A stretch of DNA of 64,000 nt from Escherichia coli (GCF_024502345.1 NZ_JALDNN010000001.1), one strand, 5' to 3'. Shown: positions 19,915 to 41,802, counted from the first letter of the stretch. The notes: generated from the sequence alone by a model not told the origin. Numbers and translations are program-made.

Positions 19915-20251
19915 CATGACTCCTTGCTCATCGCATGAAGACTCCGAGAGTGAACCCCGTTAGAAAGGGTCACACGCATGCCCCAATACAAAATTATTTG
20001 CTCGCCTCTATCGTTGCCATTTCATCAAAAGAGGAAAAGACAATGATAAAAAAGTTACAAATATGTTAATGAATAAACCAAATTGATCCCGTAATTATAT
20101 TACGCCGCAAAATCCTTACAATAAACAGGTTTTTATTGAGCAAATTTGCATTTTTCGACAGTGATCAATTTATAGCGAAATTGTCACGATCTCACCAATT
20201 TGATCTACGACAATTTATCGTGTTTTGCAGATTTTTTTCAAGAATTAAAAA

Positions 20252-20265
20252 TTGATTTATATCAA
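20252..20265. promoter_or_regulatory. FNR-type palindrome in the long AT-rich cydA upstream region
   Basis: Perfect TTGAT-N4-ATCAA (ttgatttatatcaa) about 340 bp upstream of the cydA start codon. Confidence 0.5.
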
Positions 20266-20719
20266 AACCAACCAAATATGTTAATTATGTATAAACCATA
20301 GATCATTGGTGATTTTATTGTTAATTTATTGTGAAATATTTATGCAACACAATTATTACAATGAAAAGGTATAGATAAAAAACCAGTGTTTTATTTAACA
20401 GAACCGCCCAATCAACTTTTTATAATACCAATTGATTAGAGTAGCCAATTTGTTGCTATTTTACATAACATATTTTTATCAAAGTTAATTGATTGTTGCC
20501 TTTATGAGCACCGACCGTAAGCCCGTTATGTTATTGTTTCATTAGTAATAATCACTTAAATGTATCGATGAAACAGGTATGACTTACCGGGAGTGATTGT
20601 TTCTGAGTGAACAGAGGCCACTTTCGCCTGATAAATGAAAAATGAGCGATTTTTGCAAGTTAGTTTTTCTATAGCCGAGTACGCTCAGCGCCTCGCTTGA
20701 TTACAATGAGGTTGCTGCT

Positions 20720-21664
20720 ATGAGTCCTGATAATATCGGTTCGGCTGTCAATCGCTTCTCAGGTTGGCCATCTAATGATCCTCTAAAAACAGATGAAGAA
20801 TCAATGAAATCACCCGTGACTGTGCAAGTAATAAAGATGATTGCCGCCATCCTTGACCCACATCGGATAGTCGTTGGAATTGATACACTTTATACAACGC
20901 AGCGCGAAACATTTACCTCAGAGAGTCAACAGCTCATTGAATCAGCATTGCAAACACTTCATGTGATGAATTTAAATAATCTGGAAACAAATCGCGATGA
21001 AGAAGGTCACTATCTGGCTTTTGAATATAACGTTGACACCTCTGACAGAATAACCGTTTCTGCTTATAATGAAAAAAAGCCTGGCTGCTATGGCCAATGT
21101 CTTTTAATACAGGATGACGAAACAGACTTATTTAACCTGATAAAAATTAAAATTTTCGAAGCCAGGCATAATTATGTCGCTCAATTGATGAGCGATCCGG
21201 AATTTATGTTCAAATTCAGTTATAGCGCTCAACAAAATAGATTAGAACCTCATCTTCTGGTTCCCGCTTATTTCCCTCTAAAAACAAACGAACCGGTTAC
21301 GCAAGAGGATGTACTGTTACTTTATCGTTTCTTTAAAATGAATGATGATTTTAATAAATTAACATCAGAGGAATACATGAGTATCATGACTCCTCTGATG
21401 AAGTGTGAGCGTAGCGTCCACGACAACAACAGGTATGTGACGGGCAAAGATACCCATCTTCTGGACTATCCTCCTTCTGGTAACCAGATACATTTCCATA
21501 TTTTTCCTGACGAATCAGCAACACTAGTCCTTTATTTTTCAAACAATGACCTTGAATGTTTCGTCTTTGAAAGAGATATTCCTAGCCAGTATCGCTTTTT
21601 CAAAATGTTTACCAATCTGGCACTGGTTATAGATCAGTTAACCGAAGCCAATAAAATACTTTAA
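20720..21664 (+). CDS. Hypothetical protein, 314 aa, low-GC, no recognisable domain
   Basis: Long ORF with GAGG RBS 9 nt upstream; GC visibly lower than flanking core genes; polar Ser/Thr/Asn-rich N-terminus; absent from the K-12 arrangement. Confidence 0.6.
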   Translation: MSPDNIGSAVNRFSGWPSNDPLKTDEESMKSPVTVQVIKMIAAILDPHRIVVGIDTLYTTQRETFTSESQQLIESALQTLHVMNLNNLETNRDEEGHYLAFEYNVDTSDRITVSAYNEKKPGCYGQCLLIQDDETDLFNLIKIKIFEARHNYVAQLMSDPEFMFKFSYSAQQNRLEPHLLVPAYFPLKTNEPVTQEDVLLLYRFFKMNDDFNKLTSEEYMSIMTPLMKCERSVHDNNRYVTGKDTHLLDYPPSGNQIHFHIFPDESATLVLYFSNNDLECFVFERDIPSQYRFFKMFTNLALVIDQLTEANKIL

Positions 21665-22714: not shown

Positions 22715-23164
22715 ATGAAGAAAGCAACACTTGTGATTGGCGTTATTGGCGCGGACTGCCATGCAGTAGGCAATAAAGTTCTGGACCGCGTTTTTAGCAA
22801 CCACGACTTCAGAGTCATTAATCTGGGCGTAATGGTCAGCCAGGACGAATATATTGATGCTGCCATCGAAACTGGCGCTGACGCGATTATCGTCTCCTCT
22901 ATCTATGGGCATGGCGATATCGACTGTCTGGGCATGCGCGAACGCTGCATCGAGCGTGGACTGGGTGACATCCTCCTCTATGTGGGCGGTAACCTGGTGG
23001 TCGGAAAACATGACTTCGCTGACGTGGAAACCAAGTTCAAAGAGATGGGATTTGATCGCGTCTTTGCCCCAAGTCATGACTTAGAAGATGTTTGTCAGCT
23101 GATGGCCCACGATATCAATCAACGTCATGACGTTGATACTCGTATTCTTGAAGAGGCTATCTGA
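22715..23164 (+). CDS. glmS: Glutamate mutase (methylaspartate mutase) S subunit, B12-binding
   Basis: 149 aa from [22 protein letters not shown] (cobalamin-binding DxHxxG-type motif); RBS aagga upstream; ORF-track start at 22652 is an extension. Confidence 0.85.
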
Positions 23165-24552
23165 TGCAAATCGTCTCTGTCGATATTGGATCGACGTGGA
23201 CCAAAGCTGCCCTCTTCACCCGGGAGGGGGACGCGTTAACGTTGGTTAACCACGTACTGACCCCAACCACCACCCATCATCTGGCGAAGGGGTTTTTCTC
23301 CAGCCTGAACCAGGTGTTAAACGTAGATAATGCCCTCCCCCTGTTAAACAGCGGTGAGGTTGCATTGAAGTATTCCTCCTCTGCCAAAGGTGGGCTGGCG
23401 GTTGCCGCAATGGGATTGGTGCCTTCTATCACCCTGGAAACCGCGAAAGTAACCGCTCACTCTGCGGGGGCTAAAATTGCGCAATATTACGCCTACAAGC
23501 TGAACCGCCGTGATATCCAGGCACTGGAAGAAACGCAGCCCGATATTCTCTTGTTCACCGGCGGCACCGACGGCGGAGAAGAAAGCTACGGACTGAATAA
23601 CGCCCGTGTGCTGGCAGAATCCAAACTCGACTGCGCCATTATTTATGCCGGAAACCGGGATATTCAGGACGAGGTGCAGGAGATCCTCGGGCATAAAGAC
23701 CTGACCATCGTCGACAATGTTCTGCCCGATCTTGACCATCCGAACCCTTTAGCCGCACGCCAGGCTATTTGCGACATATTCCTTAAACGCATCGTTAAAG
23801 GGAAAGGGCTGGATGTCATTGTTGATAAAACAGGCGAAGAACCAATGCCGACACCATGGACGGTCTTTGAACTGGTCAAGGCAATCAGTAACGTCGATCA
23901 CAGCTGGAAAGAGTTCATGCTGATCGACATGGGCGGCGCAACCACCGATGTTTATTCCGCCGGTGCCAACACGCTCTCGCCCGACACCGTTTTACACGGC
24001 GTACCGGAACCCTTCGTAAAACGGACGGTGGAAGGCGATCTGGGAATGCGCGTCTCGGCAGTGGTGGTTGGTGAAAGTGCGAAAGAGTTAGTCAATGTGA
24101 ATTTTGCTCAGCAACCCGCACAGCTGGACGCTTTTTATCATTACCTCCGTCATCTAGTCGCTCATCCCGACTACTTACCCGCAAATGCAGAAGAGAAATA
24201 TTTCGATACCGTCCTGGCCGGACTGTGTGTGGGTTATGCCACCGAAAGACATGCGGGCACCAAAAAAGAGGTCTGCACCTGCGTCGGCAATGTCGATTTA
24301 CAGATGGGACGTGACCTGACAACCGTGCGTAAAGTCGTCGGATCCGGCGGATGGCTCTCGCGTGCCAGTCAGTTCGATATGCATCACTGGTTGAAATACC
24401 GCGAGTTAAACGACGACGGTAAACGCATTCTCTTACCGACCGAATTTGAATATTACCGCGATTCCCGGGGGCTATTACCACTGCTGGCAAACGTCGCCAG
24501 AGTCGATCCGCTGGCCGCCGCGCGCACCAGTATTCAATGCTTAACCCTATAA
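23164..24552 (+). CDS. glmL: Glutamate mutase-associated protein GlmL (MutL-like)
   Basis: 462 aa; start overlaps the glmS stop (ATGA); sits between the S and E subunits as in clostridial glutamate mutase operons. Confidence 0.8.
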   Translation: MQIVSVDIGSTWTKAALFTREGDALTLVNHVLTPTTTHHLAKGFFSSLNQVLNVDNALPLLNSGEVALKYSSSAKGGLAVAAMGLVPSITLETAKVTAHSAGAKIAQYYAYKLNRRDIQALEETQPDILLFTGGTDGGEESYGLNNARVLAESKLDCAIIYAGNRDIQDEVQEILGHKDLTIVDNVLPDLDHPNPLAARQAICDIFLKRIVKGKGLDVIVDKTGEEPMPTPWTVFELVKAISNVDHSWKEFMLIDMGGATTDVYSAGANTLSPDTVLHGVPEPFVKRTVEGDLGMRVSAVVVGESAKELVNVNFAQQPAQLDAFYHYLRHLVAHPDYLPANAEEKYFDTVLAGLCVGYATERHAGTKKEVCTCVGNVDLQMGRDLTTVRKVVGSGGWLSRASQFDMHHWLKYRELNDDGKRILLPTEFEYYRDSRGLLPLLANVARVDPLAAARTSIQCLTL

Positions 24553-24570
24553 CAATTAAGGCTGCAATCA

Positions 24571-26016
24571 ATGGAACTTCGAAATAAGAAATTAACCCAT
24601 GACGAATTCATGACCGAGCGGCAACAGGTACTGAAAACCTGGGAAACCGGCAAGGATGTTGAAAACTTTGAAGATGGCGTTAAATACCAACAAAACATTC
24701 CTGAGCATAAACGCTTCTCTCATGCCCTGCTGAAAGCAGACAAGGAAGGTAAAACCCTTAGCCAACCGCGCGCAGGTGTGGCGCTGATGGACGAACACAT
24801 CGAACTGCTGAAAACACTACAAGAAGAGTGCGATCTGCTGCCAAGCACCATCGATGCATATACCCGTCTGAATCGGTACGAAGAAGCGGCTGTAGGGATT
24901 AAAAAATCCATCGAAGCCGGAACCTCTAAACTGAACGGTTTACCGGTAGTTAACCATGGTGTCGCAGCTTGCCGTCGCCTCACCGAAACCCTGCAAAAAC
25001 CGCTACAGATCCGCCACGGCACGCCAGATGCGCGTCTGCTGGCTGAAATCTCAATGGCCAGCGGCTTTACCAGTTATGAAGGCGGTGGCATTTCCTACAA
25101 CATTCCGTATGCCAAACGTGTAACGCTGGAAAAATCGATCCGCGACTGGCAGTACTGCGACCGTTTAATGGGGATGTACGAAGAACACGGGATCCGCATC
25201 AACCGCGAACCGTTTGGCCCACTAACGGGTACGCTGATCCCGCCGTTTATCTCGCACTCTATCGCGATAATCGAAGGCTTGCTGGCGCTGGAACAGGGTG
25301 TGAAATCTATCACCGTTGGTTATGGCCAGGTCGGCAGCCTGACGCAGGATGTTGCGGCGATCCAGTCTCTGCGTGAACTTGCACACGAATACTTTCAGAG
25401 CTATGGCTATACCGACTATGAATTAAGTACCGTGTTTCACCAGTGGATGGGCGGCTTTCCGGAAGACGAATCGAAAGCGTTCGCTATTATCTCCTGGGGC
25501 GCAGCCGTCGCGGGGATGTCTGGTGCCACCAAACTCATCACCAAAAGTCCGCACGAAGCCTGGGGCATTCCGACTGCCGCTGCCAACATTCAGGGGCTGA
25601 AAGCCTCCCGCCAGATGCTCAACATGGTCAATGAGCAGAAATTCCCGCCGTGCCCTGCGGTTGAACTGGAAATTGAACTGATTAAGAGCGAGGTTCGCGC
25701 AGTACTGAATAAAGTGTTCGAACTGGGTAATGGTGATATTGCGCGCGGAACGGTGCTGGCATTTGAAGCGGGCGTACTGGATGTGCCGTTTGCGCCAGCC
25801 GCCTGCAACGCGGGCAAAATTCTTCCGGTCCGTGACAACACCGGCGCGATACGCGTACTGGAAGCCGGAGCCGTTCCATTGCCAAAAGATATTCTCGACC
25901 TCCACCACGATTACGTTGCGGAACGCGCACGCTGTGAAGGACGCCAACCGACATTCCAGATGGTTGTAGATGACATCAATGCTGTATCCCACAGTAAATT
26001 AATAGGAAGACCATAA
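24571..26016 (+). CDS. glmE: Glutamate mutase (methylaspartate mutase) E subunit
   Basis: 481 aa, typical E-subunit size and operon position. Confidence 0.85.
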   Translation: MELRNKKLTHDEFMTERQQVLKTWETGKDVENFEDGVKYQQNIPEHKRFSHALLKADKEGKTLSQPRAGVALMDEHIELLKTLQEECDLLPSTIDAYTRLNRYEEAAVGIKKSIEAGTSKLNGLPVVNHGVAACRRLTETLQKPLQIRHGTPDARLLAEISMASGFTSYEGGGISYNIPYAKRVTLEKSIRDWQYCDRLMGMYEEHGIRINREPFGPLTGTLIPPFISHSIAIIEGLLALEQGVKSITVGYGQVGSLTQDVAAIQSLRELAHEYFQSYGYTDYELSTVFHQWMGGFPEDESKAFAIISWGAAVAGMSGATKLITKSPHEAWGIPTAAANIQGLKASRQMLNMVNEQKFPPCPAVELEIELIKSEVRAVLNKVFELGNGDIARGTVLAFEAGVLDVPFAPAACNAGKILPVRDNTGAIRVLEAGAVPLPKDILDLHHDYVAERARCEGRQPTFQMVVDDINAVSHSKLIGRP

Positions 26017-27257
26017 TGAAAATAAAACAGGCCCTGTTCACCGCTGGCTATTCCTCATTCTATTTCGATGACCAGCAGGCGATAAAAAACGGAGCGGGTC
26101 ATGACGGCTTTTTTTATACCGGGGAGCCGGTAACACAGGGGTTTAACGCCGTTCGTCAGGCCGGGGAGTGCGTATCGGTACAGTTGATTCTGGAAAACGG
26201 CGCGGTCGCCGTAGGTGACTGTACTGCCGTACAGTATTCCGGGGCAGGCGGTCGCGATCCACTGTTCCTCGCAGAGCACTTTATTCCGTTCCTCAACGAC
26301 CATATCAAGCCATTACTGGTAGGCCGCGATGTGGATGCTTTCCTGCCGAATGCCCGTTTCTTCGACAAATTGCGTATTGACGGCAACTTGCTGCATACCG
26401 CCGTGCGCTACGGATTATCACAGGCGCTGCTTGATGCTACCGCGCTGGCAACCGGCCGTCTGAAAACTGAAGTGGTCTGTGATGAATGGCAGTTGCCACG
26501 CGTGGCGGAATCCATTCCATTATTTGGTCAGAGCGGCGACGATCGATATATCGCCGTCGATAAGATGATCCTTAAAGGCATCGACGTGCTGCCCCATGCG
26601 CTGATTAATAACGTCGAAGAGAAGCTGGGCTTTAAAGGTGAAAAACTGCGCGAATATGTCCACTGGCTGTCGGATCGCATTCTGAGCAAGCGCACCAGCG
26701 CACGCTACCACCCAACCCTGCACATCGATGTATACGGCACTATCGGTCTGATCTTCGATATGGATCCGCTTCGCTGTGCGCAATACATCGCCAGCCTGGA
26801 AAAAGAAGCGCAAGGCCTGCCGCTCTACATCGAAGGGCCGGTCGATGCCGGTAACAAGCCCGATCAAATTCGCCTGCTGACCGCGATTACCAAAGAGCTG
26901 ACGCGCCTCGGTTCCGGCGTGAAAATTGTGGCCGATGAATGGTGTAACACCTACCAGGATATTGTTGATTTCACTGATGCTGCCAGTTGTCACATGGTGC
27001 AAATCAAAACCCCGGATCTGGGCAGTATTCACAACATCGTCGATGCGGTTCTTTACTGCAACAGCCACAGCATGGAAGCGTACCAGGGCGGCACCTGCAA
27101 TGAAACTGATGTCAGTGCCCGCACCTGTGTCCACGTCGCCCTTGCCGCTCGCCCTATGCGTATGCTGGTAAAACCAGGGATGGGCTTTGACGAAGGCCTC
27201 GATATCGTCTTCAACGAAATGAATCGTACTATCGCGCTGTTGCAGGCTAAGGATTAA
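26016..27257 (+). CDS. mal: 3-Methylaspartate ammonia-lyase (methylaspartase)
   Basis: 413 aa; N-terminus (FYFDDQ.AIK.GAGHDGF.YTG ... AVQYSGAGGRDPLFLA) closely resembles clostridial methylaspartase (enolase superfamily). Confidence 0.9.
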   Translation: MKIKQALFTAGYSSFYFDDQQAIKNGAGHDGFFYTGEPVTQGFNAVRQAGECVSVQLILENGAVAVGDCTAVQYSGAGGRDPLFLAEHFIPFLNDHIKPLLVGRDVDAFLPNARFFDKLRIDGNLLHTAVRYGLSQALLDATALATGRLKTEVVCDEWQLPRVAESIPLFGQSGDDRYIAVDKMILKGIDVLPHALINNVEEKLGFKGEKLREYVHWLSDRILSKRTSARYHPTLHIDVYGTIGLIFDMDPLRCAQYIASLEKEAQGLPLYIEGPVDAGNKPDQIRLLTAITKELTRLGSGVKIVADEWCNTYQDIVDFTDAASCHMVQIKTPDLGSIHNIVDAVLYCNSHSMEAYQGGTCNETDVSARTCVHVALAARPMRMLVKPGMGFDEGLDIVFNEMNRTIALLQAKD

Positions 27258-27260
27258 CAA

Positions 27261-28631
27261 ATGGCTCGTTCTTTTAAAGTCTTATCGCCAACGGCAATCC
27301 TCGGGTATGGATTCCCGGAAGAGAGCTTCCGCAAAGCGATGGCAGAATCGCCCGATCTGATCGCCGTTGATGCAGGCTCTTCCGATCCAGGCCCCCACTA
27401 CCTCGGGGCAGGCAAACCGTTTACCGATCGCGCAGGGGTCAAGCGCGATCTGCGCTATATGATCACCGCAGGCGTGCAAAATAATATACCGGTGGTGATC
27501 GGAACGGCTGGCGGTTCTGGTGCCGCACCACACCTGGAGTGGTGCCGAGAAATAATTCATGAGATTGCCCGGGAAGAGCACCTCTCGTTCTCGATGGCGC
27601 TGATCCCGGCAGACGTTGACAAAGCCATCGTCCACCAGGCGCTGGATAACGGCAAAATCACGGCGCTGGAGTTTGTCCCGCCGTTAACCCACGACGCGAT
27701 TGACGAAAGTACGTATATCGTCGCGCAAATGGGCATCGAACCCTTCCAGCGTGCGCTAAAAGAAGGCGCGCAAGTGGTGCTGGGTGGGCGCGCTTACGAC
27801 CCGGCCTGCTTTGCTGCGCTACCGATCATGCAAGGCTTTGATGAAGGTCTGGCGCTGCATTGTGGGAAAATCCTTGAGTGCGCAGCAATCGCCGCAACGC
27901 CCGGCTCAGGCTCTGACTGTGCGATGGGCATCATTGATGACAACGGCTTTACGCTGAAGACATTTAATCCGAAGCGTAAATTTACCGAAACGTCAGCAGC
28001 TGCACACACACTGTATGAGAAATCCGATCCTTACTTCCTGCCAGGACCTGGCGGCGTGTTGAATCTGAAAGGCTGCACATTTAAAGCGGTCAATAACGGC
28101 GAAGTGTACGTCAGCGGTTCTAAGCATGAAGAAACGCCGTATGCCCTGAAACTGGAAGGTGCACGACGGGTGGGCTTCCGCTGTCTGACCATCGCCGGAA
28201 CGCGCGACCCGATTATGATCGCCGGGATCGATAAAATCATCGATGAAGTCAAAACCAGCGTTTCGCGTAACCTGTCGCTCGACGATGACAGCATTCGCAT
28301 CAATTTCCACCTGTACGGCAAAAACGGGGTGATGGGAGACCATGAACCGATGCAAACTGCCGGGCATGAGCTGGGGATTGTCCTTGATGTAGTTGCACCG
28401 ACCCAGGAAATTGCCAACAGCGTTTGCTCGCTGGTGCGCTCTACCATGCTGCACTACGGCTATGAAAACCGCATCGCTACCGCAGGCAATCTGGCGTTCC
28501 CGTTCTCCCCTTCTGATATCCAGGGCGGGCCGGTATACGAATTTTCCATATATCACCTGATTGAAGCCAACGACGCTCTGCGTTTTGATTTCCATATTGA
28601 ACAGGTGACGCCAGAAGGAGTTCAGGCATGA
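27261..28631 (+). CDS. Uncharacterised conserved protein (tentatively AtuA-like/DUF1446 type), translationally coupled to mal
   Basis: 456 aa ORF starting 3 nt after the mal stop; normal GC; family assignment is from memory and needs an HMM search. Confidence 0.7.
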   Translation: MARSFKVLSPTAILGYGFPEESFRKAMAESPDLIAVDAGSSDPGPHYLGAGKPFTDRAGVKRDLRYMITAGVQNNIPVVIGTAGGSGAAPHLEWCREIIHEIAREEHLSFSMALIPADVDKAIVHQALDNGKITALEFVPPLTHDAIDESTYIVAQMGIEPFQRALKEGAQVVLGGRAYDPACFAALPIMQGFDEGLALHCGKILECAAIAATPGSGSDCAMGIIDDNGFTLKTFNPKRKFTETSAAAHTLYEKSDPYFLPGPGGVLNLKGCTFKAVNNGEVYVSGSKHEETPYALKLEGARRVGFRCLTIAGTRDPIMIAGIDKIIDEVKTSVSRNLSLDDDSIRINFHLYGKNGVMGDHEPMQTAGHELGIVLDVVAPTQEIANSVCSLVRSTMLHYGYENRIATAGNLAFPFSPSDIQGGPVYEFSIYHLIEANDALRFDFHIEQVTPEGVQA

Positions 28632-28945
28632 AACAGTCAATTGTCTCACTGGCGCAAGTCATTCGTTCGAAAAATGCCGGACCTTACGAACTGGTTTTAG
28701 ATATTTTATTTAAAACGAAAGAAAACTATGAGCGAGTTAAATCATCAGGGCAATTAACCCCAGAACTGATTGCGCGCTTATATCATGTTGAACCTGACTT
28801 TATTCATCGTATTGTCTGGTTTGATCCTTCTAACGCAGTAAAAATCGTCATGCCACGAGATATTATCTCCGGGAATGTAGGTGACAATGATGTCTATGGT
28901 GCACAGCAACATGCACCTTTATTAAATATGAGTTTCGATTTGTAA
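28628..28945 (+). CDS. Small uncharacterised protein (tentatively DUF4387 type), overlaps upstream gene by 4 nt
   Basis: 105 aa ORF with ATGA overlap to the 456 aa ORF; last gene of the operon. Confidence 0.6.
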   Translation: MKQSIVSLAQVIRSKNAGPYELVLDILFKTKENYERVKSSGQLTPELIARLYHVEPDFIHRIVWFDPSNAVKIVMPRDIISGNVGDNDVYGAQQHAPLLNMSFDL

Positions 28946-29084: not shown

Positions 29085-29378
29085 GTGCACCTGATGGAGG
29101 AAAAAATGAAGAAAATAAGTTTAACCACGATGATTCTTTTGGCGCTGGTACTTGGAATGATTATCGGCGTAGTGCTCAATAACACTGTTTCACCGGAAAC
29201 AGCAAAACTCTATGCGCAAGAAATATCGATATTCACGACGATTTTCTTACGACTGATAAAAATGATTATCGCTCCGTTAGTGGTCTCTACCCTGGTGGTA
29301 GGTATTGCTAAAATGGGAGATGCCAAAGCCCTTGGTCGTATTTTTTCTAAAACACTCTTTTTATTTATTTGCGCCTCA
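29085..29378 (+). pseudogene. 5' fragment (about 98 codons) of a GltP/DctA-family dicarboxylate/amino-acid:cation symporter, truncated by IS1
   Basis: N-terminus [23 protein letters not shown]...[30 protein letters not shown] matches the conserved first TM segments of GltP-type symporters; frame runs into the IS1 left end and stops at 29405. Confidence 0.8.
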
Positions 29379-29433
29379 GGTGATGCTGCCAACTTACTGA
29401 TTTAGTGTATGATGGTGTTTTTGAGGTGCTCCA

Positions 29434-29709
29434 GTGGCTTCTGTTTCTATCAGCTGTCCCTCCTGTTCAGCTACTGACGGGGTGGTGCGTAACGGCAAAA
29501 GCACCGCCGGACATCAGCGCTATCTCTGCTCTCACTGCCGTAAAACATGGCAACTGCAGTTCACTTACACCGCTTCTCAACCCGGTACGCACCAGAAAAT
29601 CATTGATATGGCCATGAATGGCGTTGGATGCCGGGCAACCGCCCGCATTATGGGCGTTGGCCTCAACACGATTTTCCGCCATTTAAAAAACTCAGGCCGC
29701 AGTCGGTAA
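29434..29709 (+). CDS. insA: IS1 InsA protein
   Basis: 91 aa [43 protein letters not shown]... Confidence 0.95.
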
Positions 29710-30131
29710 CCTCGCGCATACAGCCGGGCAGTGACGTCATCGTCTGCGCGGAAATGGACGAACAGTGGGGATACGTCGGGGCTAAATCGCGCCAGCGCTG
29801 GCTGTTTTACGCGTATGACAGGCTCCGGAAGACGGTTGTTGCGCACGTATTCGGTGAACGCACTATGGCGACGCTGGGGCGTCTTATGAGCCTGCTGTCA
29901 CCCTTTGACGTGGTGATATGGATGACGGATGGCTGGCCGCTGTATGAATCCCGCCTGAAGGGAAAGCTGCACGTAATCAGCAAGCGATATACGCAGCGAA
30001 TTGAGCGGCATAACCTGAATCTGAGGCAGCACCTGGCACGGCTGGGACGGAAGTCGCTGTCGTTCTCAAAATCGGTGGAGCTGCATGACAAAGTCATCGG
30101 GCATTATCTGAACATAAAACACTATCAATAA
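29628..30131 (+). CDS. insB: IS1 InsB reading frame (expressed as InsAB' transposase by -1 frameshift)
   Basis: 167 aa ORF in the -1 frame overlapping the insA 3' end; classic IS1 organisation. Confidence 0.9.
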
Positions 30132-30146
30132 GTTGGAGTCATTACC

Positions 30147-30555
30147 AATCGCCGTTATTAGCTAAAGAATGAATATTAACAATAATATCGGGATGTAACT
30201 TTGTGAATTCATGTAAATTTGGGATTAACCAGTGGGTACTAAAAGTAGGATTAACGGCAAGTTCAATAACCTGAACCGTAGGCTGCCAGGTCATAATGGT
30301 ATTGGTATCGCGTTCCAGCTTATTTAATGTTTCTTTTACTATCCCCAGGTAATACTTCCCTGCATCATTAAGAAAAATGCGTTTTTTAGAGTGTGAAAAT
30401 AACGGAGTACGTAAAAATTCCTCCAGCGCACTTACTTGTCTGAATACTGCACTTTGGGTTAACGCTAACTCCTCTGCCGCTCTGGTATAACTTTCATGAC
30501 GTGCGACGACCTCAAAAGTCACCAGCAGTTCCGTTTTAGGTATTTTCCCTCGCAT
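30147..30555 (-). pseudogene. 5' fragment (about 136 codons) of a LysR-family transcriptional regulator, truncated by IS1
   Basis: N-terminal HTH typical of LysR (TFEVVARHESYTRAAEELALTQSAVFRQVSALEEFL); reading frame runs into the IS1 right end. Confidence 0.8.
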
Positions 30556-31107
30556 AATGCCGTCCCTTAAAAATAGTTTAAACCATCAAAAATACATTAC
30601 TTATTACGAAGTAATGGTAACAAAGCAGCAATAAATAATTTATAAGAATCATGATTGACATTTATAAACCAGTAAGGCTGGCGTGACAAATATCTTAATC
30701 AGATAATAATAATCCGAAAAGCACAGCGCCTTTCGAATTATCCGGAATCACATTAAGTGAAAATTATTAAATTGATATCATTTATCATATCTGTGGATAT
30801 TATGATAAACAATCAACAAAGATTTTATTTTTGATTTATAGCATATCCATCTAAGAATTTTTGCGATGCTGCAATATCCGGGGTAAAGACCCGATCCTGG
30901 CTGACAAATGGCACGACTTGACGAAAAGCGGTGAACATCGCTTTTGTTGATTTACTTAACGCTACGGTCAAACGCTGGGAAGCCAGTGCATCAGGTAACG
31001 ATTCGAAATTCGCCGTCGTTCTTATTCGTGGCTTGCGGTCGGTCGCGGCAATCCACAGTGGCTGTGGTCATGCAGTCAAGCCTGCAGTCAGATTTCGACC
31101 GTGGTTA

Positions 31108-31140
31108 ACCGTTTAAGGTATAAAAAAGGCCATCATACGA
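31108..31140 (-). terminator. Rho-independent terminator downstream of sucD
   Basis: Minus-strand hairpin ggccatcgtatgatggcc followed by TTTTTTAT. Confidence 0.65.
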
Positions 31141-31220
31141 TGGCCAACCATGTCGAAACCGACAGCCCTTCGCCATTCCTGTAGAGGGAAGCGGCGAGGG
31201 CTATTTCTTATTACAGATAT
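31110..31220 (-). ncRNA. sdhX: Possible SdhX (RybD) sRNA from the sucD 3' UTR
   Basis: About 100 nt between the sucD stop and the terminator, the position where the 3'-UTR-derived sRNA lies in K-12; sequence identity not verified. Confidence 0.4.
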
Positions 31221-32090
31221 TTATTTCAGAACAGTTTTCAGTGCTTCACCGATATCCGCCAGGCTGCGAACGGTTTTCACGCCTGCGGCTTCCAGAGCAG
31301 CGAATTTCTCATCCGCAGTCCCTTTCCCACCGGCAATGATGGCACCCGCGTGGCCCATACGTTTGCCTTTCGGCGCAGTCACACCAGCGATGTAACCCAC
31401 AACTGGCTTGGTAACGTGCTCTTTGATGTACGCAGCTGCTTCTTCTTCAGCGCTACCGCCGATCTCACCGATCATCACGATCGCTTCGGTCTGCGGATCT
31501 TTTTCGAACATTTCGAGAATGTCGATAAAGTTAGAGCCAGGGATCGGGTCACCGCCGATACCGACACAGGTCGACTGACCGAAACCGTAATCCGTGGTCT
31601 GTTTAACCGCTTCATAGGTCAGTGTACCGGAACGGGAAACGATACCCACTTTACCCGGTTTGTGAATGTGACCCGGCTGGATACCGATTTTGCATTCACC
31701 CGGAGTGATAACGCCCGGGCAGTTCGGGCCGATCATACGAACGCCGGCTTCGTCCAGTTTCACTTTCACAGTCAGCATATCCAGCGTCGGGATGCCTTCA
31801 GTGATGGTGATAATCAGTTTGATGCCTGCATCAATAGCTTCCAGAATGGAGTCTTTGCAGAACGGTGCTGGTACGTAGATAACAGAAGCGGTAGCGCCAG
31901 TAGCAGCAACAGCTTCACGCACGGTGTTGAACACCGGCAGGCCGAGGTGGGTAGTACCGCCTTTACCTGGGGTTACGCCGCCAACCATTTTAGTGCCGTA
32001 TGCAATGGCCTGTTCTGAGTGGAAAGTCCCCTGGCTACCAGTAAAGCCCTGGCAGATAACCTTGGTGTTTTTATCAATTAAAATGGACAT
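31221..32090 (-). CDS. sucD: Succinyl-CoA synthetase alpha subunit
   Basis: 289 aa. Confidence 0.95.
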
Positions 32091-33256
32091 TATTTCCCCT
32101 CCACTGCGGCAACAACCTGCTGAGCTGCATCCGTCAGACCTTTTGCTGCAATAATATTCAGGCCGCTGTCAGCCAGTTTCTTCGCGCCGAGTTCGGCGTT
32201 GTTACCTTCCAGACGTACCACGACCGGTACGTTAACACCCACTTCTGCTACCGCGCCGATGATACCGTCAGCGATCAGGTCGCAACGAACGATACCGCCG
32301 AAGATGTTAACCAGAACGGCTTTCACTTTGTCGTCAGAGAGGATGATTTTGAACGCTTCGGTTACACGTTCTTTGGTTGCGCCGCCGCCAACGTCAAGGA
32401 AGTTAGCCGGTTCGCCGCCGTGCAGTTTAACGATGTCCATCGTACCCATCGCCAGACCTGCGCCGTTAACCATACAACCGATGTTACCGTCCAGCGCAAC
32501 GTAGTTCAGTTCCCACTGTGCAGCCTGTGCTTCACGCGGATCTTCCTGCGACTGGTCACGCATTTCGCGCAGATCAGGCTGGCGGAACAGTGCGTTGCCA
32601 TCAGCGCCCAGTTTGCCGTCGAGGCAAATCAGATCGCCCTGTTTGGTAATGACCAGCGGGTTGATTTCGATCAGCGCCAGGTCACGCTCCAGGAAAATGG
32701 TCGCCAGGCCCATGAAGATTTTGGTGAACTGCTGAACCAGTTTACCTTCCAGACCCAGTTTGAACGCCAGCTCGCGTCCCTGATACGGCATCGGGCCAGT
32801 CAGCGGATCAAGCGCAACTTTGTGGATCAGGTGCGGAGTTTCTTCCGCCACTTTTTCGATTTCCACGCCGCCTTCGGTAGAGGCCATAAAGACCACGCGA
32901 CGTGAACTACGGTCTACAACGGCACCGAGATACAGCTCTTTAGCGATATCGGTCGCCGCTTCAACCAGAATCTGGTTAACCGGTTGGCCATTGGCATCTG
33001 TTTGATACGTTACCAGACGCTTGCCCAGCCAGTTTTCTGCAAAAGCACGGATGTCTTCTTTACTGTTTACAACTTTCACACCGCCCGCTTTACCGCGGCC
33101 ACCAGCGTGAACCTGACATTTCACTACCCACGGACCGGCACCGATTTTTGAAGCGGCTTCTTCTGCTTCGCGCGGAGTAGTACAGGCATAACCCACCGGT
33201 GCTGGTAAGCCATAGCGGGCAAAAAGTTGTTTTGCCTGATATTCATGTAAGTTCAT
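32090..33256 (-). CDS. sucC: Succinyl-CoA synthetase beta subunit
   Basis: 388 aa ([16 protein letters not shown]...); stop overlaps the sucD start. Confidence 0.95.
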
Positions 33257-33329
33257 GTGTTCTGTCCATCCTTCAGTAATCGTTATCTTTTAAACCGTAG
33301 ACCGAATATTTCGTATCGCTTCCGGGTAT

Positions 33330-33525
33330 TGTCGGTCACCCGTAGGCCTGATAAGACGTGTAAGCGTCGCATCTGGCATCGCTTGTCGGATGCGGCGCGA
33401 GCGCCTTATCCGACCTACATCGGTGCTTCCCGTAGGCCTGATAAGACGCGTTAAGCGTCGCATCAGGCTTCAATTGCCGGAGAAGGCGATAATGTCTTAT
33501 CCGGTCTACAGTGCAGGTGAAACTT
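33330..33525. repeat. BIME/REP cluster in the sucB-sucC intergenic region
   Basis: Repeated gcctgataagacg...cgcatc palindromic units. Confidence 0.6.
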
Positions 33526-33531
33526 AAACTA

Positions 33532-34749
33532 CTACACGTCCAGCAGCAGACGCGTCGGATCTTCCAGCAACTCTTTGATTGTTAACAGGAAGCCAACGGA
33601 TTCGCGACCATCGATCAGACGGTGATCGTAGGACAGCGCCAGGTACATCATCGGCAGGATCTCAACCTGACCATTCACAGCCATCGGACGATCTTTGATA
33701 GCGTGCATACCCAGAATTGCGCTCTGCGGCGGGTTGATGATAGGCGTAGACATCAGGGAACCGAACACACCACCGTTGGTGATGGTGAAGTTACCACCGG
33801 TCAGATCTTCAACCGTCAGCTTGCCGTCACGGCCTTTAACTGCCAGCTCTTTGATTTTCTTCTCGATGTCTGCCATGCCGAGGGTATCGACATCACGCAG
33901 TACCGGCGTCACCAGGCCGCGCGGCGTAGAAACCGCCATGCTGACGTCGAAATAGTTGTGGTAAACCACGTCATCGCCGTCGATAGAAGCATTCACTTCC
34001 GGGTAACGTTTCAGGGCTTCAACCACCGCTTTCACGTAGAAGGACATAAAGCCCAGACGGATGCCGTGGCGTTTTTCAAATGCTTCACCGTACTGCTTAC
34101 GCAGATCCATAATCGGCTTCATGTTGACTTCGTTGAACGTGGTCAGCATGGCGGTGGAGTTTTTCGCTTCCAGCAGACGCTCTGCCACACGCTTACGCAG
34201 GCGAGTCATCGGGACACGTTTTTCGCTACGTGCAGCCAGAGCCGGTTGCGCCGCCGGAGCAGCCGCTGCCGGAGCAGACTCTTTCGCCGGAGCTTTCGCC
34301 AGATGTTTTTCCACATCTTCACGGGTCAGACGACCACCCACACCGGTGCCTTTAATGGCGCTGGCGTCGAGGTTATGTTCAGCCAGCAGGCGACGGATCG
34401 CCGGGCTTAACGCATCGTTGTTTTGCTCTTCCAGAGACGCCTGCTGGCGTTGCGCCGGAGTGGACGCTTTCTCTTCAGATTTGGCGCTGGTTTCTTTACC
34501 GGCGCTGTTGCCTTCACGCAGGCGACCAAGGATCTGACGAGACGTTACCGTTGTACCTTCATCTTCCAGAACCGCATCCAGAATGCCATCTGCTGATGCC
34601 GGTACTTCCAGTACCACTTTGTCAGTTTCGATTTCTACCAGCACTTCATCACGTACGACTGCGTCGCCGGGTTTTTTATGCCAGGTTGCGACGGTGGCAT
34701 CGGCTACGGATTCAGGCAGGTCAGGGACCAGAATATCTACGCTACTCAT
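33532..34749 (-). CDS. sucB: 2-Oxoglutarate dehydrogenase E2 (dihydrolipoyllysine succinyltransferase)
   Basis: 405 aa; lipoyl domain, Ala/Pro linker, catalytic domain. Confidence 0.95.
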
Positions 34750-34763
34750 TGTGTATCCTTTAT

Positions 34764-37565
34764 TTATTCGACGTTCAGCGCGTCATTAACCAGATCTTGT
34801 TGCTGTTTCTGGTGAACGGACATATACCCTACCGCCGGAGAGGCGGAGGCCGGGCGGCCTGCATAACGCAGAGAAGCCCCAAACGGAATCACTTCACGGA
34901 AATGATGCTGGCTGCAGTACCATGCGCCCTGGTTGAGCGGCTCTTCCTGGCACCAGACAAAATCCTTGACGTGAGCAAACTGCTGCAACACTTCCTGCAT
35001 CGCTTTATGCGGGAACGGGTAGAGTTGCTCGATACGCACAATGGCGACATCATGTTGATTGTTCTTACGACGCTGTTCCAGCAGGTCGTAATAAACCTTA
35101 CCAGAACACATCACTACGCGCTTCACGCCCTTCGGATCAAGCTCGTCGATTTCACCGATGGCTGGCAGGAAGGTGCCGTTCGCCAGTTCTTCGAGGCTGG
35201 AAACCGCCAGCGGATGACGCAGCAGGGATTTCGGCGACATCACTACCAGCGGACGACGCATCCCGCGCAGCGCCTGACGACGCAGCATGTGGTAAACCTG
35301 TGCCGGGGTAGACGGAACGCAAACCTGCATGTTTTGCTCAGCACAAAGTTGCAGATAACGTTCCAGACGCGCGGAGGAGTGCTCCGGCCCCTGCCCTTCG
35401 TAACCGTGCGGCAGCAACATCACCAGACCACACATCCGGCCCCATTTCTGTTCGCCAGAAGAGATGAACTGGTCGATAACCACCTGCGCACCGTTGGCGA
35501 AGTCACCGAACTGCGCTTCCCAGATGGTCAGAGTGCGTGGTTCTGCGGTGGCATAACCGTATTCAAACGCCAGCACTGCTTCTTCAGACAGTACGGAGTC
35601 CCAGACGCGGAACGCGCCCTGCCCGTTATGGATGTGTTGCAACGGCGTGTAAGTGGAACCGTTAGACTGGTTGTGGATCACCGCGTGGCGGTGGAAGAAG
35701 GTACCGCGACCGGAGTCTTCACCCGACAGGCGAACCGGAATGCCTTCGTCAACCAGCGTGGCGTAAGCGAGGTTTTCCGCACCGCCCCAGTCGAACAGTT
35801 TTTCACCGGCAGCCATCGCCTGGCGATCGCCATAAATCTTGGCAACGCGAGACTGCATTTCAACTGCTTCCGGCACCGTGCTGATGCGTTTCGCCAGCTC
35901 CTGCAGGCGCTTCATCTCAACTTTGTTCGGGTACTCTTCGTCCCATTCGTGGTTGAGGTACGGCGACCAGGTGAAAGAGTGCATGTTCATCGGACGCCAC
36001 TCTGCCACTACGCAATCGCCAGCATCCAGCGCATCGCGGTACAGGTTAACCATCTCGGTGGCATCTTCCAGCGTCGCCACTTTTTCCTGCTCCAGCTTGT
36101 CAGCGTAGATTTTGCGCGGTGTCGGATGTTTTTTGATTTTCTGATACATCAGCGGCTGGGTTGCGCTCGGCTCGTCGGCTTCGTTGTGGCCGTGACGGCG
36201 GTAGCACACCAGGTCGATGAAGACATCACGTTTAAAGGTGTTACGGAAATCGAGCGCCAGACGGGTCACAAAGGCAACGGCTTCCGGATCATCCGCGTTA
36301 ACGTGGAAAATCGGTGCCTGAACCATCTTACCGATATCAGTACAGTACGGTGTAGAACGAGCATCCAGCGGATTAGAGGTGGTGAAACCAACCTGGTTGT
36401 TGATAACGATACGTACCGTACCGCCAACTTCATAACCACGCGCTTTCGACATGTTCAGAGTTTCCTGAACCACGCCCTGCCCGGTCACTGCGGCGTCACC
36501 GTGGATGGTGATTGGCAGCACTTTGTTGCTGCTCGGCTCATCAAGTCTGTCCAGACGGGCACGAACAGAACCGATAACTACCGGGCTTACAATCTCAAGG
36601 TGAGACGGGTTAAACGCCAGCGCCAGGTGCACCAGGCCGCCATCGGTCTGGAAGTCAGACGAGAAGCCCATGTGGTATTTCACGTCACCCGTGCCGAGGT
36701 GTTCTTTATGTTTACCGGCAAACTCGTCGAACAAGTCTTGCGGTTTTTTACCCAGCACGTTCACCAGCACGTTCAGACGACCACGGTGCGCCATCCCAAG
36801 AACCACTTCGCGGGTGCCGCTGTTGCCAGCGTGGCGGATCATCTCTTTAAGCATCGGGATTAACGCGTCACCGCCTTCCAGCGAGAAGCGTTTTGCGCCA
36901 GGGAATTTTGCGCCGAGGTAACGTTCAAGGCCTTCAGCGGCGGTCAGTTCGCTTAAGAAGCGTTTTTTCTCTTCGCTATTGAAAGTCGCGCGACCAGACT
37001 CGATACGCTGTTGGATCCAGCGTTTTTCTTCGGTGCTGGTAATGTGCATATACTCGGCACCAATCGGGCCACAGTAGGTTTGCTTGAGTGCTTCCAGCAG
37101 CTCGCCGAGTTTCATGGTTTCTTTGCCGCTGGCAAATGAACCGACGTTGAAGGTTTCCTGGAAGTCTGCTTCGGTCAGATCGTGGAAAGACGGATCCAGA
37201 TCGGCCACTTTATCTTGCTGCCACAGTCCCAGCGGATCGAGATTCGCATGCTGGTGACCACGGAAGCGGTATGCGTTAATGAGCTGCAGGACTTTAACCT
37301 GCTTCACATTGGTGTCAGGGTCGGAGATCGTTGAAGAGTAACGTGAAGCGTCTTTCGCCAGGCGGCGGAAATATTCACGCGTTTGAGAGTGGAATTGATC
37401 CGGTTTGACTCCCGTACCAGGTAACTGCTGGAACGTCGAACGCCAGTTAGCGTCAACCGAGTCAGGATCGGTTAAGAAGTCTTCATAGAGCTGTTCTATC
37501 CAGCTCTGGTTTGCGCCAGAGAGGTAAGAAGAGTCCAACCAGGCTTTCAAAGCGCTGTTCTGCAT
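34764..37565 (-). CDS. sucA: 2-Oxoglutarate dehydrogenase E1 component
   Basis: 933 aa. Confidence 0.95.
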
Positions 37566-37739
37566 CGTGATCCCTTAAGCATCTTTTTTATGCTTACTTC
37601 GCCGTGGATACTACCACGCACAGTGATGTGCGTGCCGGGGTTCACTTGCGAGCTCTTGTCTACGTAGTGGCTCGCGAAGGAACCTTTAAAAACTGTCTTA
37701 GTGTCAGGGGCAGTTTTTAAAGATTTCCTGCATTTCTTT

Positions 37740-37865
37740 GTTACGCCTGATGCGCTGCGCTTATCAGGCCTACGGGTAATGACTTGTAGGCCGGATAAGG
37801 CGTTCACGCCGCATCCGGCACTGGTTGCCTGATGCGACGCTTGCGCGTCTTATCAGGCCTACGGT
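37740..37865. repeat. REP elements in the sdhB-sucA intergenic region
   Basis: gcctgatgcgctgcgcttatcaggcctac and repeated copies. Confidence 0.6.
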
Positions 37866-38582
37866 TTACGCATTACGTTGCAACAACATCGACTTGATAT
37901 GGCCGATGGCGCGCGTCGGGTTCAGCCCCTTCGGACATACACTGACGCAGTTCATGATGCTGTGACAGCGGAATACGCTGAATGCATCGCTCAAACCGTC
38001 GAGGCGGCTGTCAGTCTCGGTATCACGGCTATCGATCAGGAAACGATATGCCGCTAACAAGCCTGCCGGGCCGATAAACTTATCGGGATTCCACCAGAAA
38101 GACGGACAAGAGGTTGAACAACATGCGCAGAGAATACATTCATACAGCCCGTCGAGTTTTTCGCGCTGCTCTGGCATCTGTAAATGCTCGCGAGCTGGCG
38201 GATTTTGTCCATTATTCAACAGGTAAGGCTTAATTTTCTCATATTGCGCATAGAATTGTCCCATGTCTACCACCAAATCGCGGATCACCGGTAAACCTGG
38301 CAGCGGGCGAATCACAATCTTCTTGCCCGGCTGGTTGAGTGCCGAAATCGGGGTAATACAGGCCAGACCATTCTTGCCGTTCATGTTCAGACCGTCGGAA
38401 CCGCACACACCTTCACGACAGGAGCGGCGGAACGACAGGCTGGGATCTTTCTCTTTCAGCTGGATAAGCGCATCCAGCAGCATCATGTCGCGACCTTCTT
38501 CCGCTTCCAGGGTGTAATCCTGCATACGCGGAGCATCATCAACATCCGGGTTATAGCGATAAATTGAAAACTCGAGTCTCAT
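37866..38582 (-). CDS. sdhB: Succinate dehydrogenase iron-sulfur subunit
   Basis: 238 aa; Cys clusters for 2Fe-2S/4Fe-4S/3Fe-4S centres. Confidence 0.95.
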   Translation of the reverse strand: MRLEFSIYRYNPDVDDAPRMQDYTLEAEEGRDMMLLDALIQLKEKDPSLSFRRSCREGVCGSDGLNMNGKNGLACITPISALNQPGKKIVIRPLPGLPVIRDLVVDMGQFYAQYEKIKPYLLNNGQNPPAREHLQMPEQREKLDGLYECILCACCSTSCPSFWWNPDKFIGPAGLLAAYRFLIDSRDTETDSRLDGLSDAFSVFRCHSIMNCVSVCPKGLNPTRAIGHIKSMLLQRNA

Positions 38583-38597
38583 TTTCCTGTCTCCGCA

Positions 38598-40364
38598 TTA
38601 GTAAGTACGAATCTTCGGCGGGAATGCCGGGCGCAGTTTCGGTTCCATGTTGACGCTTCGGCGCGTCATGGATTCCGACTCTGGCAGATACAGGGAGTGG
38701 CACAGCCAGTTTTCATCATCACGATCCGGGAAGTCGAAGCGGCTATGTGCGCCACGGCTTTCGGTACGGAAGTTGGCAGAAACAGCCGTTGCATACGCCG
38801 TTTCCATCAGGTTATCCAGTTCCAGGCACTCAACGCGCTGGGTGTTGAACTCGCTGGAAGTGTCATCCAGACGGGCATTTTTCAGACGCTCGCGGATAAC
38901 TTTCAACTGCTCAAGCCCTTTCGCCATCGCATCACCTTCACGGAAGACCGAGAAGTTATGCTGCATACATTCTTGCAGCGCTTTACGAATCGCCACCGGA
39001 TCTTCACCGTTACGATTATTGTTCCAGCGGTTCAGACGATCCAGAGATGCTTCAACATCAGACTCGCTGGCATCGCGCAATGCGCCCTGTTCGGCGATAG
39101 ACTCTTGCAGATGCAGACCTGCCGCACGACCAAAGACCACCAGGTCCAGCAGCGAGTTGCCGCCCAGACGGTTAGCGCCGTGTACCGATACACAAGCGAT
39201 TTCACCAACGGCAAACAGCCCCGGAACAACCACATCTTCGCCTTTCTCGTTCACCGTCAGCGCCTGACCGGTCACTTTGGTCGGAATACCGCCCATCATG
39301 TAGTGACAGGTTGGGATAACCGGAATCGGCTCTTTCACCGGATCGACGTGAGCGAAGGTACGGGAAAGCTCCAGGATACCCGGCAGACGGGATTCGAGAA
39401 CTTCTTTACCCAGGTGATCGAGTTTCAGTTTCGCGTGTGGCCCCCACGGACCATCACAGCCGCGACCTTCACGGATTTCAATCATGATGGAACGCGCCAC
39501 CACATCACGGCCCGCCAGGTCTTTGGCGTTCGGCGCATAACGCTCCATAAAGCGTTCGCCATGTTTGTTCAGCAGATAACCGCCTTCACCACGGCAACCT
39601 TCGGTGACCAGTACGCCCGCACCGGCAATGCCGGTCGGGTGGAATTGCCACATTTCCATATCCTGCACCGGTACGCCTGCGCGGATAGCCATGCCGACAC
39701 CGTCGCCAGTGTTAATGTGGGCGTTAGTGGTGGACTGATAAATACGCCCTGCCCCGCCAGTCGCCAGCACGGTAGCGCGGGCTTTGAAATAAACCACTTC
39801 ACCGGTTTCGATGCACAGTGCGGTACAACCCACCACCGCGCCATCCTGGTTTTTCACCAGATCCAGCGCATACCACTCGGAGAAAATGGTGGTGTGGTTT
39901 TTCAGGTTCTGCTGATAAAGCGTGTGCAACAGTGCGTGACCGGTACGGTCAGCCGCCGCCGCAGTGCGTGCCGCCTGCTCGCCGCCGAAGTTTTTCGACT
40001 GACCGCCAAACGGACGTTGATAGATACGACCATCATCAAGACGCGAGAACGGCAGGCCCATGTGTTCGAGTTCCAGAATCGCTTCCGGCCCGGTTTTACA
40101 CATATATTCAATCGCGTCCTGGTCACCGATATAGTCCGACCCTTTTACGGTGTCGTACATATGCCATTCCCAGTTATCTTCATGGGTATTACCCAGCGCA
40201 ACGGTAATGCCGCCTTGCGCAGAAACGGTATGGGAACGGGTCGGGAAGACTTTAGAGAGCAGCGCACAGGTCTGGCCGCTCTGGGAAATTTGCAGCGCCG
40301 CGCGCATACCTGCGCCACCGGCACCAATCACAACTGCATCAAATTCTCTGACTGGCAATTTCAT
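38598..40364 (-). CDS. sdhA: Succinate dehydrogenase flavoprotein subunit
   Basis: 588 aa from [19 protein letters not shown] (FAD-binding); ORF-track start is 4 codons upstream. Confidence 0.95.
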
Positions 40365-40711
40365 CACACACCCCACACCACAACGAATCCATAAATCACG
40401 TAAACCACCAGTGCAACGACAATCACCAGTTGCAGCATCAGGCGCAAAGCCAGCGGTTTAACGTAGTCGGTCAACACCTGCCACATGCCGATCCAGGCAT
40501 GGATCAAGATAGAAAACAGCGCCAGCAGGGTGAACACTTTGGTGAACGCAGAGGCGAAGAAACCGATCCAGACTTCATATGTCAGCTCGCCACTGGTGGC
40601 GAAAAAACCGACCATATAAATGATGTAGAGCGTCAGGACGATAGCGGTAGCGCGAACGAGGATGAAATCATGTACGCCATTGCGTCCTAATGCGGAGGCG
40701 TTGCTTACCAT
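40364..40711 (-). CDS. sdhD: Succinate dehydrogenase membrane anchor subunit
   Basis: 115 aa hydrophobic. Confidence 0.93.
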
Positions 40712-41094
40712 ACGAGGACTCCTGCGAGAAGTGAAAGCACGACAGTAATAACAAAGGAGATTTTGGCGGAGCGTTTACCCGCTTCGAATGTTTCTTCCAG
40801 ATAGCCAAAATCCATCATCATGTGGCGAATACCTACGACGACGTGATACGCCATAGCGGTAAGGATGCCCCACATGATAAATTTGACGAAAAAGCTGCCC
40901 ATAATCGCGGAAGCTTGCTCGAAACCTTCAGGGGAAGAGAGGCTGGTACCCAGAAGCCACAGCAGGATACCCACTGCAACAAAGGTGATCACACCGGAAA
41001 CGCGATGGAGAATGGACGCTATCGCCGTGATGGGGAACCGGATGGTCTGTAGGTCCAGATTAACAGGTCTTTGTTTTTTCACATTTCTTATCAT
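40705..41094 (-). CDS. sdhC: Succinate dehydrogenase cytochrome b556 subunit
   Basis: 129 aa from [15 protein letters not shown]; ORF-track start is 5 codons upstream. Confidence 0.9.
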
Positions 41095-41802
41095 GAATAA
41101 CGCCCACATGCTGTTCTTATTATTCCCTGGGGACTACGGGCACAGAGGTTAACTTTCTGTTACCTGGAGACGTCGGGATTTCCTTCCTCCGGTCTGCTTG
41201 CGGGTCAGACAGCGTCCTTTCTATAACTGCGCGTCATGCAAAACACTGCTTCCAGATGCGAAAACGACACGTTACAACGCTGGGTGGCTCGGGATTGCAG
41301 GGTGTTCCGGAGACCTGGCGGCAGTATAGGCCGTTCACAAAATCATTACAATTAACCTACATATAGTTTGTCGGGTTTTATCCTGAACAGTGATCCAGGT
41401 CACGATAACAACATTTATTTAATTTTTAATCATCTAATTTGACAATCATTCAACAAAGTTGTTACAAACATTACCAGGAAAAGCATATAATGCGTAAAAG
41501 TTATGAAGTCGGTATTTCACCTAAGATTAACTTATGTAACAGTGTGGAAGTATTGACCAATTCATTCGGGACAGTTATTAGTGGTAGACAAGTTTAATAA
41601 TTCGGATTGCTAAGTACTTGATTCGCCATTTATTCGTCATCAATGGATCCTTTACCTGCAAGCGCCCAGAGCTCTGTACCCAGGTTTTCCCCTCTTTCAC
41701 AGAGCGGCGAGCCAAATAACAAACGGGTAAAGCCAGGTTGATGTGCGAAGGCAAATTTAAGTTCCGGCAGTCTTACGCAATAAGGCGCTAAGGAGACCTT
41801 AA

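Follow-up and report, generated by a model that had tools for sequence, protein, structure and literature searches.

A deletion mediated by IS1 in the glutamate-fermentation island of Escherichia coli removed 3,910 bp of chromosomal DNA and left one IS1 exactly at the junction, a conclusion that we hold with very high confidence. The element was found between the 5' remnants of two convergent genes, a DAACS-type ("GltP-like") symporter gene and a LysR-type regulator gene, in the window, that is, the whole stretch of 64,000 nucleotides that was analyzed (GCF_024502345.1, NZ_JALDNN010000001.1). The features of the locus, together with those of the intact genes in the reference loci, are listed in Table 1.

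Table 1. Features of the interrupted locus in the window and of the corresponding intact genes in the reference loci.
Feature	Position in window	Strand	Size	Remark
Surviving upstream island genes glmS, glmL, glmE, mal, AtuA-family, DUF4387	22715..28945	+		
DAACS-family (GltP/DctA-like) symporter, 5' remnant	29106..29378	+		aligns to reference locus L001, 10807-11079
Left 9 bp flank of IS1, TGCGCCTCA	29370..29378		9 bp	no copy on right
IS1, complete	29379..30146	+	768 bp	
IS1 IRL	29379-29401			
insA frame in IS1	29434-29709		91 aa	
A6C frameshift motif of IS1	29685-29691			
insB' frame in IS1	ends 30131		167 aa	
IS1 IRR	30124-30146			
Right 9 bp flank of IS1, AATCGCCGT	30147..30155		9 bp	no copy on left
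LysR-type regulator, 5' remnant	30147..30555	-		aligns to reference locus L001, 14990-15398
Reference symporter gene			1,281 bp; 426 aa	
Reference class I fumarate hydratase gene			1,653 bp	
Reference cobO			603 bp	
Reference LysR-family gene			906 bp; 301 aa	convergent

The element displayed the characteristic organization of the IS1 family, namely a length of 768 bp, imperfect inverted repeats of approximately 23 bp, and insA and insB' frames with a -1 frameshift at the A6C motif. Comparison of the left end, GGTGATGCTGCCAACTTACTGAT, with the reverse complement of the right end, ATCAATAAGTTGGAGTCATTACC, revealed that the terminal inverted repeats agreed at 18 of 23 positions. InsA (positions 1-81) and InsB' (76-199) together tiled the 199-position NCBIfam model of the IS1 transposase, NF033558, and InsB' alone scored 143.8 against a cutoff of 100. 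We also found that the element was nearly identical to the IS1 of E. coli 14EC033 discussed below, which PGAP annotates as IS1B (767/768 positions; one base apart), and that it was the sole IS1 copy in the whole 64 kb. The boundaries, inverted repeats and transposase frames therefore bore out the preliminary description, which had reported an intact 768 bp IS1 between two 5' gene fragments. The same description had noted unmatched 9 bp flanks and had argued that this was not a simple insertion. The flanks TGCGCCTCA and AATCGCCGT were indeed different, and no target-site duplication was detected around the window IS1 among repeats of 7-14 bp with at most one mismatch and with either boundary shifted by up to 6 bp. 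No matching 8-9 bp repeats were found with corrected IS1 boundaries, and the earlier claim stands. The missing duplication is a sign of secondary rearrangement and does not count against the identity of the IS1.

To the left of the element, the symporter remnant comprised 91 of the 426 native codons (273 nt), counted from the ATG at 29106, which is the start in the reference annotation. The truncation had been described correctly, although the earlier count of about 98 codons was too high, since it started at an upstream GTG (29085). The reading frame enters IS1 for eight codons (GDAANLLI) and reaches a stop at 29403-29405; the resulting fusion ORF of 99 aa matched the Pfam SDF family. In the NCBIfam GltP/DctA models, the remnant covered GltP model positions 4-88 of 437. 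The intact reference symporter belongs to the DAACS/SDF family (Pfam PF00375), and its scores were below the cutoffs of both the GltP equivalog NF008440 (299; cutoff, 638) and the DctA model (313; cutoff, 513). "GltP-type" is thus only a loose label for this protein, although it is named GltP in PMC4682846 as well.

To the right, 136 of the 301 native codons of the LysR gene (409 nt) remained on the minus strand, running from 30555 down to 30147, a count that agreed with the one given earlier. The frame continues through one hybrid codon to a stop inside IS1 (30142-30144). The remnant kept the helix-turn-helix and the linker, while most of the effector-binding domain was gone. In particular, it matched only HTH_1 in Pfam, whereas the intact homologues matched HTH_1 and LysR_substrate, which is consistent with a truncation at codon 136. 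The LysR remnant matched NCBIfam models over positions ~3-132, and overall the two fragments reached only the N-terminal 85-130 positions of their respective models.

The ancestral arrangement was taken from the loci of E. coli PapRG-04-4 (L001) and O157:H7 DEC4E (L002). In both, an accessory "glutamate fermentation" island, which is present in about a fifth of E. coli genomes, is located between cydA and sucD. The order from cydA is two hypothetical genes, glmS, glmL, glmE, the methylaspartate ammonia-lyase gene (mal), an AtuA-family gene and a DUF4387 gene, followed by the symporter gene, a class I fumarate hydratase gene (fumD), cobO, the convergent LysR-family gene and sucD. The products of glmS, glmL and glmE are glutamate mutase and its accessory protein. 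A search of 5,426 complete E. coli genomes recovered the left flank in 1,125. In the window, the eight island genes upstream of the symporter gene, beginning with the two hypothetical genes and ending with DUF4387, and sucD were full length and had no internal stops; a tblastn comparison with the PapRG-04-4 proteins gave full-length matches with 98.7-100% identity and 0 stops. The O157:H7 glutamate-fermentation cluster with FumD was described by Kronen and Berg in 2015 (PMC4682846), who labeled the genes in their Fig 5 as GltP, FumD, CobA and a LysR-type regulator and described FumD as a promiscuous mesaconase/fumarase. The reference fumarase passed the cutoff of the class I equivalog NF011921 (1274; cutoff, 1060) and remained below that of the FumA model (928; cutoff, 1105). 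Its membership in NF011921, distinct from FumA, and its synteny, which is the same as in that Fig 5, show that the lost gene fits a FumD-type mesaconase.

Some variation was observed around the island. In three loci (L021, L025 and L028; ~17029-21371), the LysR end adjoined RtcB-family, family-38 glycoside hydrolase (alpha-mannosidase-type) and PTS genes, as called by Pfam domains, and not sucD, which indicates that the right-hand boundary of the island varies between lineages. One of the ~1,126 island occurrences was located in a record labeled as a plasmid and not as a chromosome. Additionally, an Rfam scan of the window from 19 to 34 kb revealed nothing relevant to the junction. The sole Rfam match was naRNA4, a REP-derived nucleoid-associated RNA, in the sucB-sucC intergenic region (33345-33415, minus strand; 64.9 bits against a gathering score of 59.5).

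Upon alignment with the PapRG-04-4 locus, the window flanks were collinear with the reference up to 11079 on the left and from 14990 on the right, and the 3,910 bp in between were absent. The edges of this gap (reference 11080-14989) coincided exactly with the IS1 termini. The deleted DNA contained the last 335 codons of the symporter gene (1,008 nt), fumD and cobO in their entirety, and the last 165 codons of the LysR gene (497 nt), together with three short intergenic gaps (107, 9 and 33 bp). The alignment revealed no microhomology or overlap between the two breakpoints. Both endpoints were locally AT-rich, with a fraction of 0.60-0.62 compared with 0.50 in the deleted segment. IS1 prefers AT-rich targets, and both endpoints are therefore plausible IS1 target sites.

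Among the 1,127 complete E. coli genomes with any part of the 3.9 kb segment, 1,122 contained at least 80% of it, and in those 1,122 genomes the symporter and LysR genes were full length with fumD and cobO between them. The state of the window is therefore rare and derived. The preliminary description had proposed an adjacent deletion or a recombination that removed both 3' ends and the DNA between them, and the 3,910 bp gap at the IS1 ends supported this proposal; the comparison with related genomes, which could have revealed the two fragments as natural neighbors, instead revealed full-length genes that lie apart. As to the lost content, the rest of the transporter and the fumD-type mesaconase had been predicted correctly and cobO had been missed. 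The predicted "cognate regulator target" was not borne out, since the only intergenic DNA lost was the three short gaps given above.

We searched for independent records of the event by looking up the exact sequences of the two junction-specific fusion ORFs across assemblies. The 137 aa LysR' fusion ORF of the right junction was found in 18 contigs, which came from the NCBI assembly GCA_050022275.1 and a number of metagenome assemblies, among others, with human gut as the label of at least one, and the 99 aa symporter' fusion ORF of the left junction was found in 14 contigs. Both junctions occurred in the samples ERZ27268145 and ERZ27268317. One contig of an NCBI assembly matched the window with 100% identity across 10,484 bp before ending 75 bp inside IS1; all the junction contigs stopped 27-140 bp inside IS1, as short-read assemblies should, and all but one were identical or nearly identical to the window. 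Both junctions recur in independent assemblies and are thus not confined to a single one, which speaks against an artefact. Only the assembly of the window itself connects the two junctions physically through a single IS1, as the other contigs stop inside the element.

The exception was a contig from sample ERZ27268317 (k141_21029, 1-7343; L015). Its left junction was identical to that of the window, whereas its flank differed at 45 of 7,202 positions, one of them just 72 bp away from that junction. In the same sample, the contig with the right junction was nearly identical to the window. Many of the L015 alleles were private when compared with 13 other haplotypes and with 1,124 genomes, and an origin of this contig as a mixture of known haplotypes was rejected for that reason. 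L015 may be a metagenome consensus affected by noise or chimerism, or it may represent a sub-lineage that has diverged, a recombinant or another hit at this nucleotide.

Neither window junction was found in the 5,426 complete E. coli genomes, in which the only near match was a different IS1 event in 14EC033. We also compared the adjoining sucDCBA-sdh backbone (window 30147-42000; 11.8 kb) and found that the best complete RefSeq E. coli genome was at most 99.1% identical, while draft assemblies were 99.9-100% identical. As no complete genome exceeded 99.1%, the lineage of the window is absent from the complete-genome collection. Close relatives were instead found in draft assemblies, with the exact AtuA-family protein of the window as a marker. 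Two loci, L023 (GCA_028757225.1) and L024 (ERZ27310493), had flanks that were 99.94% identical to those of the window; 6 mismatches were counted over 9,379 bp of left flank, and 1-2 over 3,855 bp of right flank. In both, the 3.9 kb segment was present and the locus contained no IS1. The undeleted state at this level of identity indicates that the arrival of IS1 and the deletion postdate a very recent split.

IS1-promoted adjacent deletions are classically described for the gal region of E. coli. We consider an adjacent deletion to be the most likely route to the present structure, a preference that we hold with moderate confidence. An IS1 would first have entered the locus at one endpoint or the other, generating the usual 9 bp duplication, and intramolecular replicative transposition from that IS1 into the nearby second site would then have deleted the intervening DNA. 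What remains would be one IS1 that keeps its original orientation and whose flanks do not match. This route is favored by parsimony, as it involves one insertion and one intramolecular event and not two insertions followed by recombination. ISs without duplications have been attributed to adjacent deletion or to recombination between ISs, and in the long-term evolution experiment (LTEE) all 14 deletion-associated IS movements were traced to adjacent deletions beside a pre-existing IS (PMC11708052).

A second route, which we regard as possible though somewhat doubtful, consists of two same-orientation IS1 insertions, one duplicating TGCGCCTCA in the symporter gene and the other duplicating AATCGCCGT in the LysR gene, followed by RecA-dependent recombination that excised the 3.9 kb and one IS1. 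Its product would be one IS1 with unmatched flanks and collinear flanking DNA, as seen here; both endpoints look like acceptable IS1 targets, and such recombination is a recognized cause of missing duplications (PMC11708052). IS1 can also be abundant in E. coli, as in 14EC033, where it occupies at least 39 places. However, this route requires two insertions 3.9 kb apart as well as a recombination, and the window has one IS1 in 64 kb. The closest undeleted relatives also argue against it, as they have no IS1 in the locus. Since the products of adjacent deletion and of IS-IS recombination are identical in sequence, only a precursor separates the two routes. A precursor with an insertion on the left would have an internal junction of the IS1 IRR joined to TGCGCCTCA and TTGCTGTCAATTG, and one with an insertion on the right would have CCCGATTAAGAA and AATCGCCGT joined to the IS1 IRL. 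No precursor with IS1 and its duplication at an endpoint and with the 3.9 kb retained was found in the 5,426 complete E. coli genomes. Searches for the internal junctions with duplications of 7-14 bp gave 0 matches in two metagenome contig scans, a weak result in that the scans had no positive control. That no precursor was found counts against an adjacent deletion too. The two-insertion route predicts both internal junctions, and neither was found in the complete genomes or the metagenome contigs, which weighs against it.

It is very unlikely that the IS1 was captured into a double-strand break during the deletion, as a single event without staggered cuts made by transposase, a model that Ngan et al. 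(2024) proposed for some IS5 and IS481 events (PMC11708052). Such a capture would account for a single IS amid a deletion, for the lack of a duplication and for the lack of a detected precursor. On the other hand, the IS1 ends are complete to the last base, and both junctions are located in locally AT-rich DNA, as is typical of IS1 targets. The model has also not been shown for IS1, and all 14 deletion-associated IS movements in the LTEE were resolved as ordinary adjacent deletions (PMC11708052).

We consider it extremely unlikely that an assembler collapsed two IS1 copies flanking the 3.9 kb into one. The independent contigs would allow this reading, because all of them stop inside IS1 and none physically links both junctions. 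However, the window is contiguous through the 768 bp repeat, which a short-read collapse would not normally produce; the internal junctions expected of two copies were found nowhere in the complete genomes or the metagenome contigs, and the complete genome of 14EC033 has the same single-IS1 architecture. Finally, a simple IS1 insertion between naturally short, adjacent genes without any deletion, which has only the bare look of the locus in its favor, is refuted by the reference loci, the alignment gap and the genome counts, as there is no duplication, 1,122 genomes have full-length genes with fumD and cobO between them, and each fragment covers no more than the N-terminal part of its family model.

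The IS1-bounded deletion in the window has a close parallel. E. coli 14EC033 (NZ_CP024147.1; L013 7349-8116) contains a truncated symporter gene, an IS1 in the same orientation and a truncated LysR gene, and it has lost fumD and cobO. Its IS1 also has no target-site duplication (ATCGTGGTG on one side and GGGTTAACG on the other). The two loci are thus alike in the order of symporter remnant, IS1 and LysR remnant, in the orientation of the IS1 and in the missing duplication. They differ in their endpoints: the 14EC033 deletion spans reference positions 11278-15298 (4,021 bp) and that of the window 11080-14989, and neither is nested in the other. The flanks of 14EC033 were 98.9% identical to those of the window, with SNPs at 61, 178 and 191 bp from the left junction. 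A common origin of the two events from one ancestral IS1 with later deletions on either side of it was considered and rejected, given the lack of nesting, the divergence of ~1.1% and the nearby SNPs. The non-nested endpoints and the flank divergence indicate that the 14EC033 deletion was an independent event.

Other forms of damage to the island were also observed. In E. coli 23CRST031 (NZ_AP045800.1; L020 7976-10800), the island is almost entirely missing, from the cydA side as far as the LysR gene, beside an IS903B, and a frameshifted IS1A lies between the LysR remnant and sucD. In E. coli ST2747 (NZ_CP007392.1; L029 6471-7127), an IS-free deletion fuses the start of glmE to DUF4387, with loss of mal and the AtuA-family gene, and the LysR gene (L029 10974-11880) is annotated as frameshifted. 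The two close relatives L023 and L024 share a 1-bp deletion at nt 1103 of the symporter gene, within a G-run and inside the segment lost from the window, and L025 has a separate 1-bp deletion in a T-run of the same gene at nt 251; the loci that carry these frameshifts are otherwise intact. These cases show that the island decays occasionally and by several mechanisms, whereas ~99.5% of the complete genomes that have the segment keep it essentially complete.

The endpoints of the two independent IS1 deletions are 198 bp and 309 bp apart. It seems unlikely to us that the right-hand module (symporter, fumD, cobO and LysR) has been lost repeatedly in a non-random manner and not in neutral one-off events. 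The signs of such a loss would be these two deletions, the separate frameshifts in the symporter gene (L023/L024 and L025) and in the regulator gene (ST2747), and the deletion bounded by IS903B. Such a pattern of repeated loss could reflect selection for inactivation of the module in some gut lineages or hot spots for IS1 targeting. If loss were non-random, L015 would be a second hit at the same nucleotide.

With regard to function, the gene content suggests that this lineage has lost its dedicated mesaconase, B12 adenosyltransferase, transporter and regulator, while the mutase and lyase genes remain. The methylaspartate pathway in the lineage is probably unregulated or silent. BtuR, the housekeeping adenosyltransferase of E. 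coli, could cover cobO. For FumA and FumB, the catalytic efficiency of the mesaconase activity is ~10% of that with fumarate (PMC4682846), and the mesaconase step may therefore be partly covered. Among the genes lost, the regulator and transporter genes are probably the most consequential.

The window thus represents a circulating, mainly human-gut-associated E. coli lineage in which the island has been partly lost and the mutase and lyase have been kept. This is useful when the presence or absence of the island is scored or when the island is linked to pathogenicity, as Kronen and Berg suggested. The locus adds one more case in which ISs erode an accessory metabolic island. The gene cluster, its IS1 and the mechanism behind the loss have all been described before; this is ordinary textbook IS-mediated gene loss, and it reveals no new mechanism, element or function.

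Compared with the O157:H7 FumD cluster (PMC4682846), the window has the same island in the same chromosomal place, with the genes from glmS to DUF4387 intact, and differs in that the GltP-FumD-CobA part and the 3' half of the regulator gene are gone. Recombination between two direct IS copies yields an end product that is identical in sequence to the one seen here; it differs in requiring a two-copy precursor, and none was found. From IS adjacent deletions in general (PMC11708052), no mechanistic difference was visible; the precursor insertion was not observed here, and the deletion may have run in either direction. The likeness to these deletions extends to the single IS at the junction, the new flank or flanks, the missing duplication and the collinear flanking DNA.
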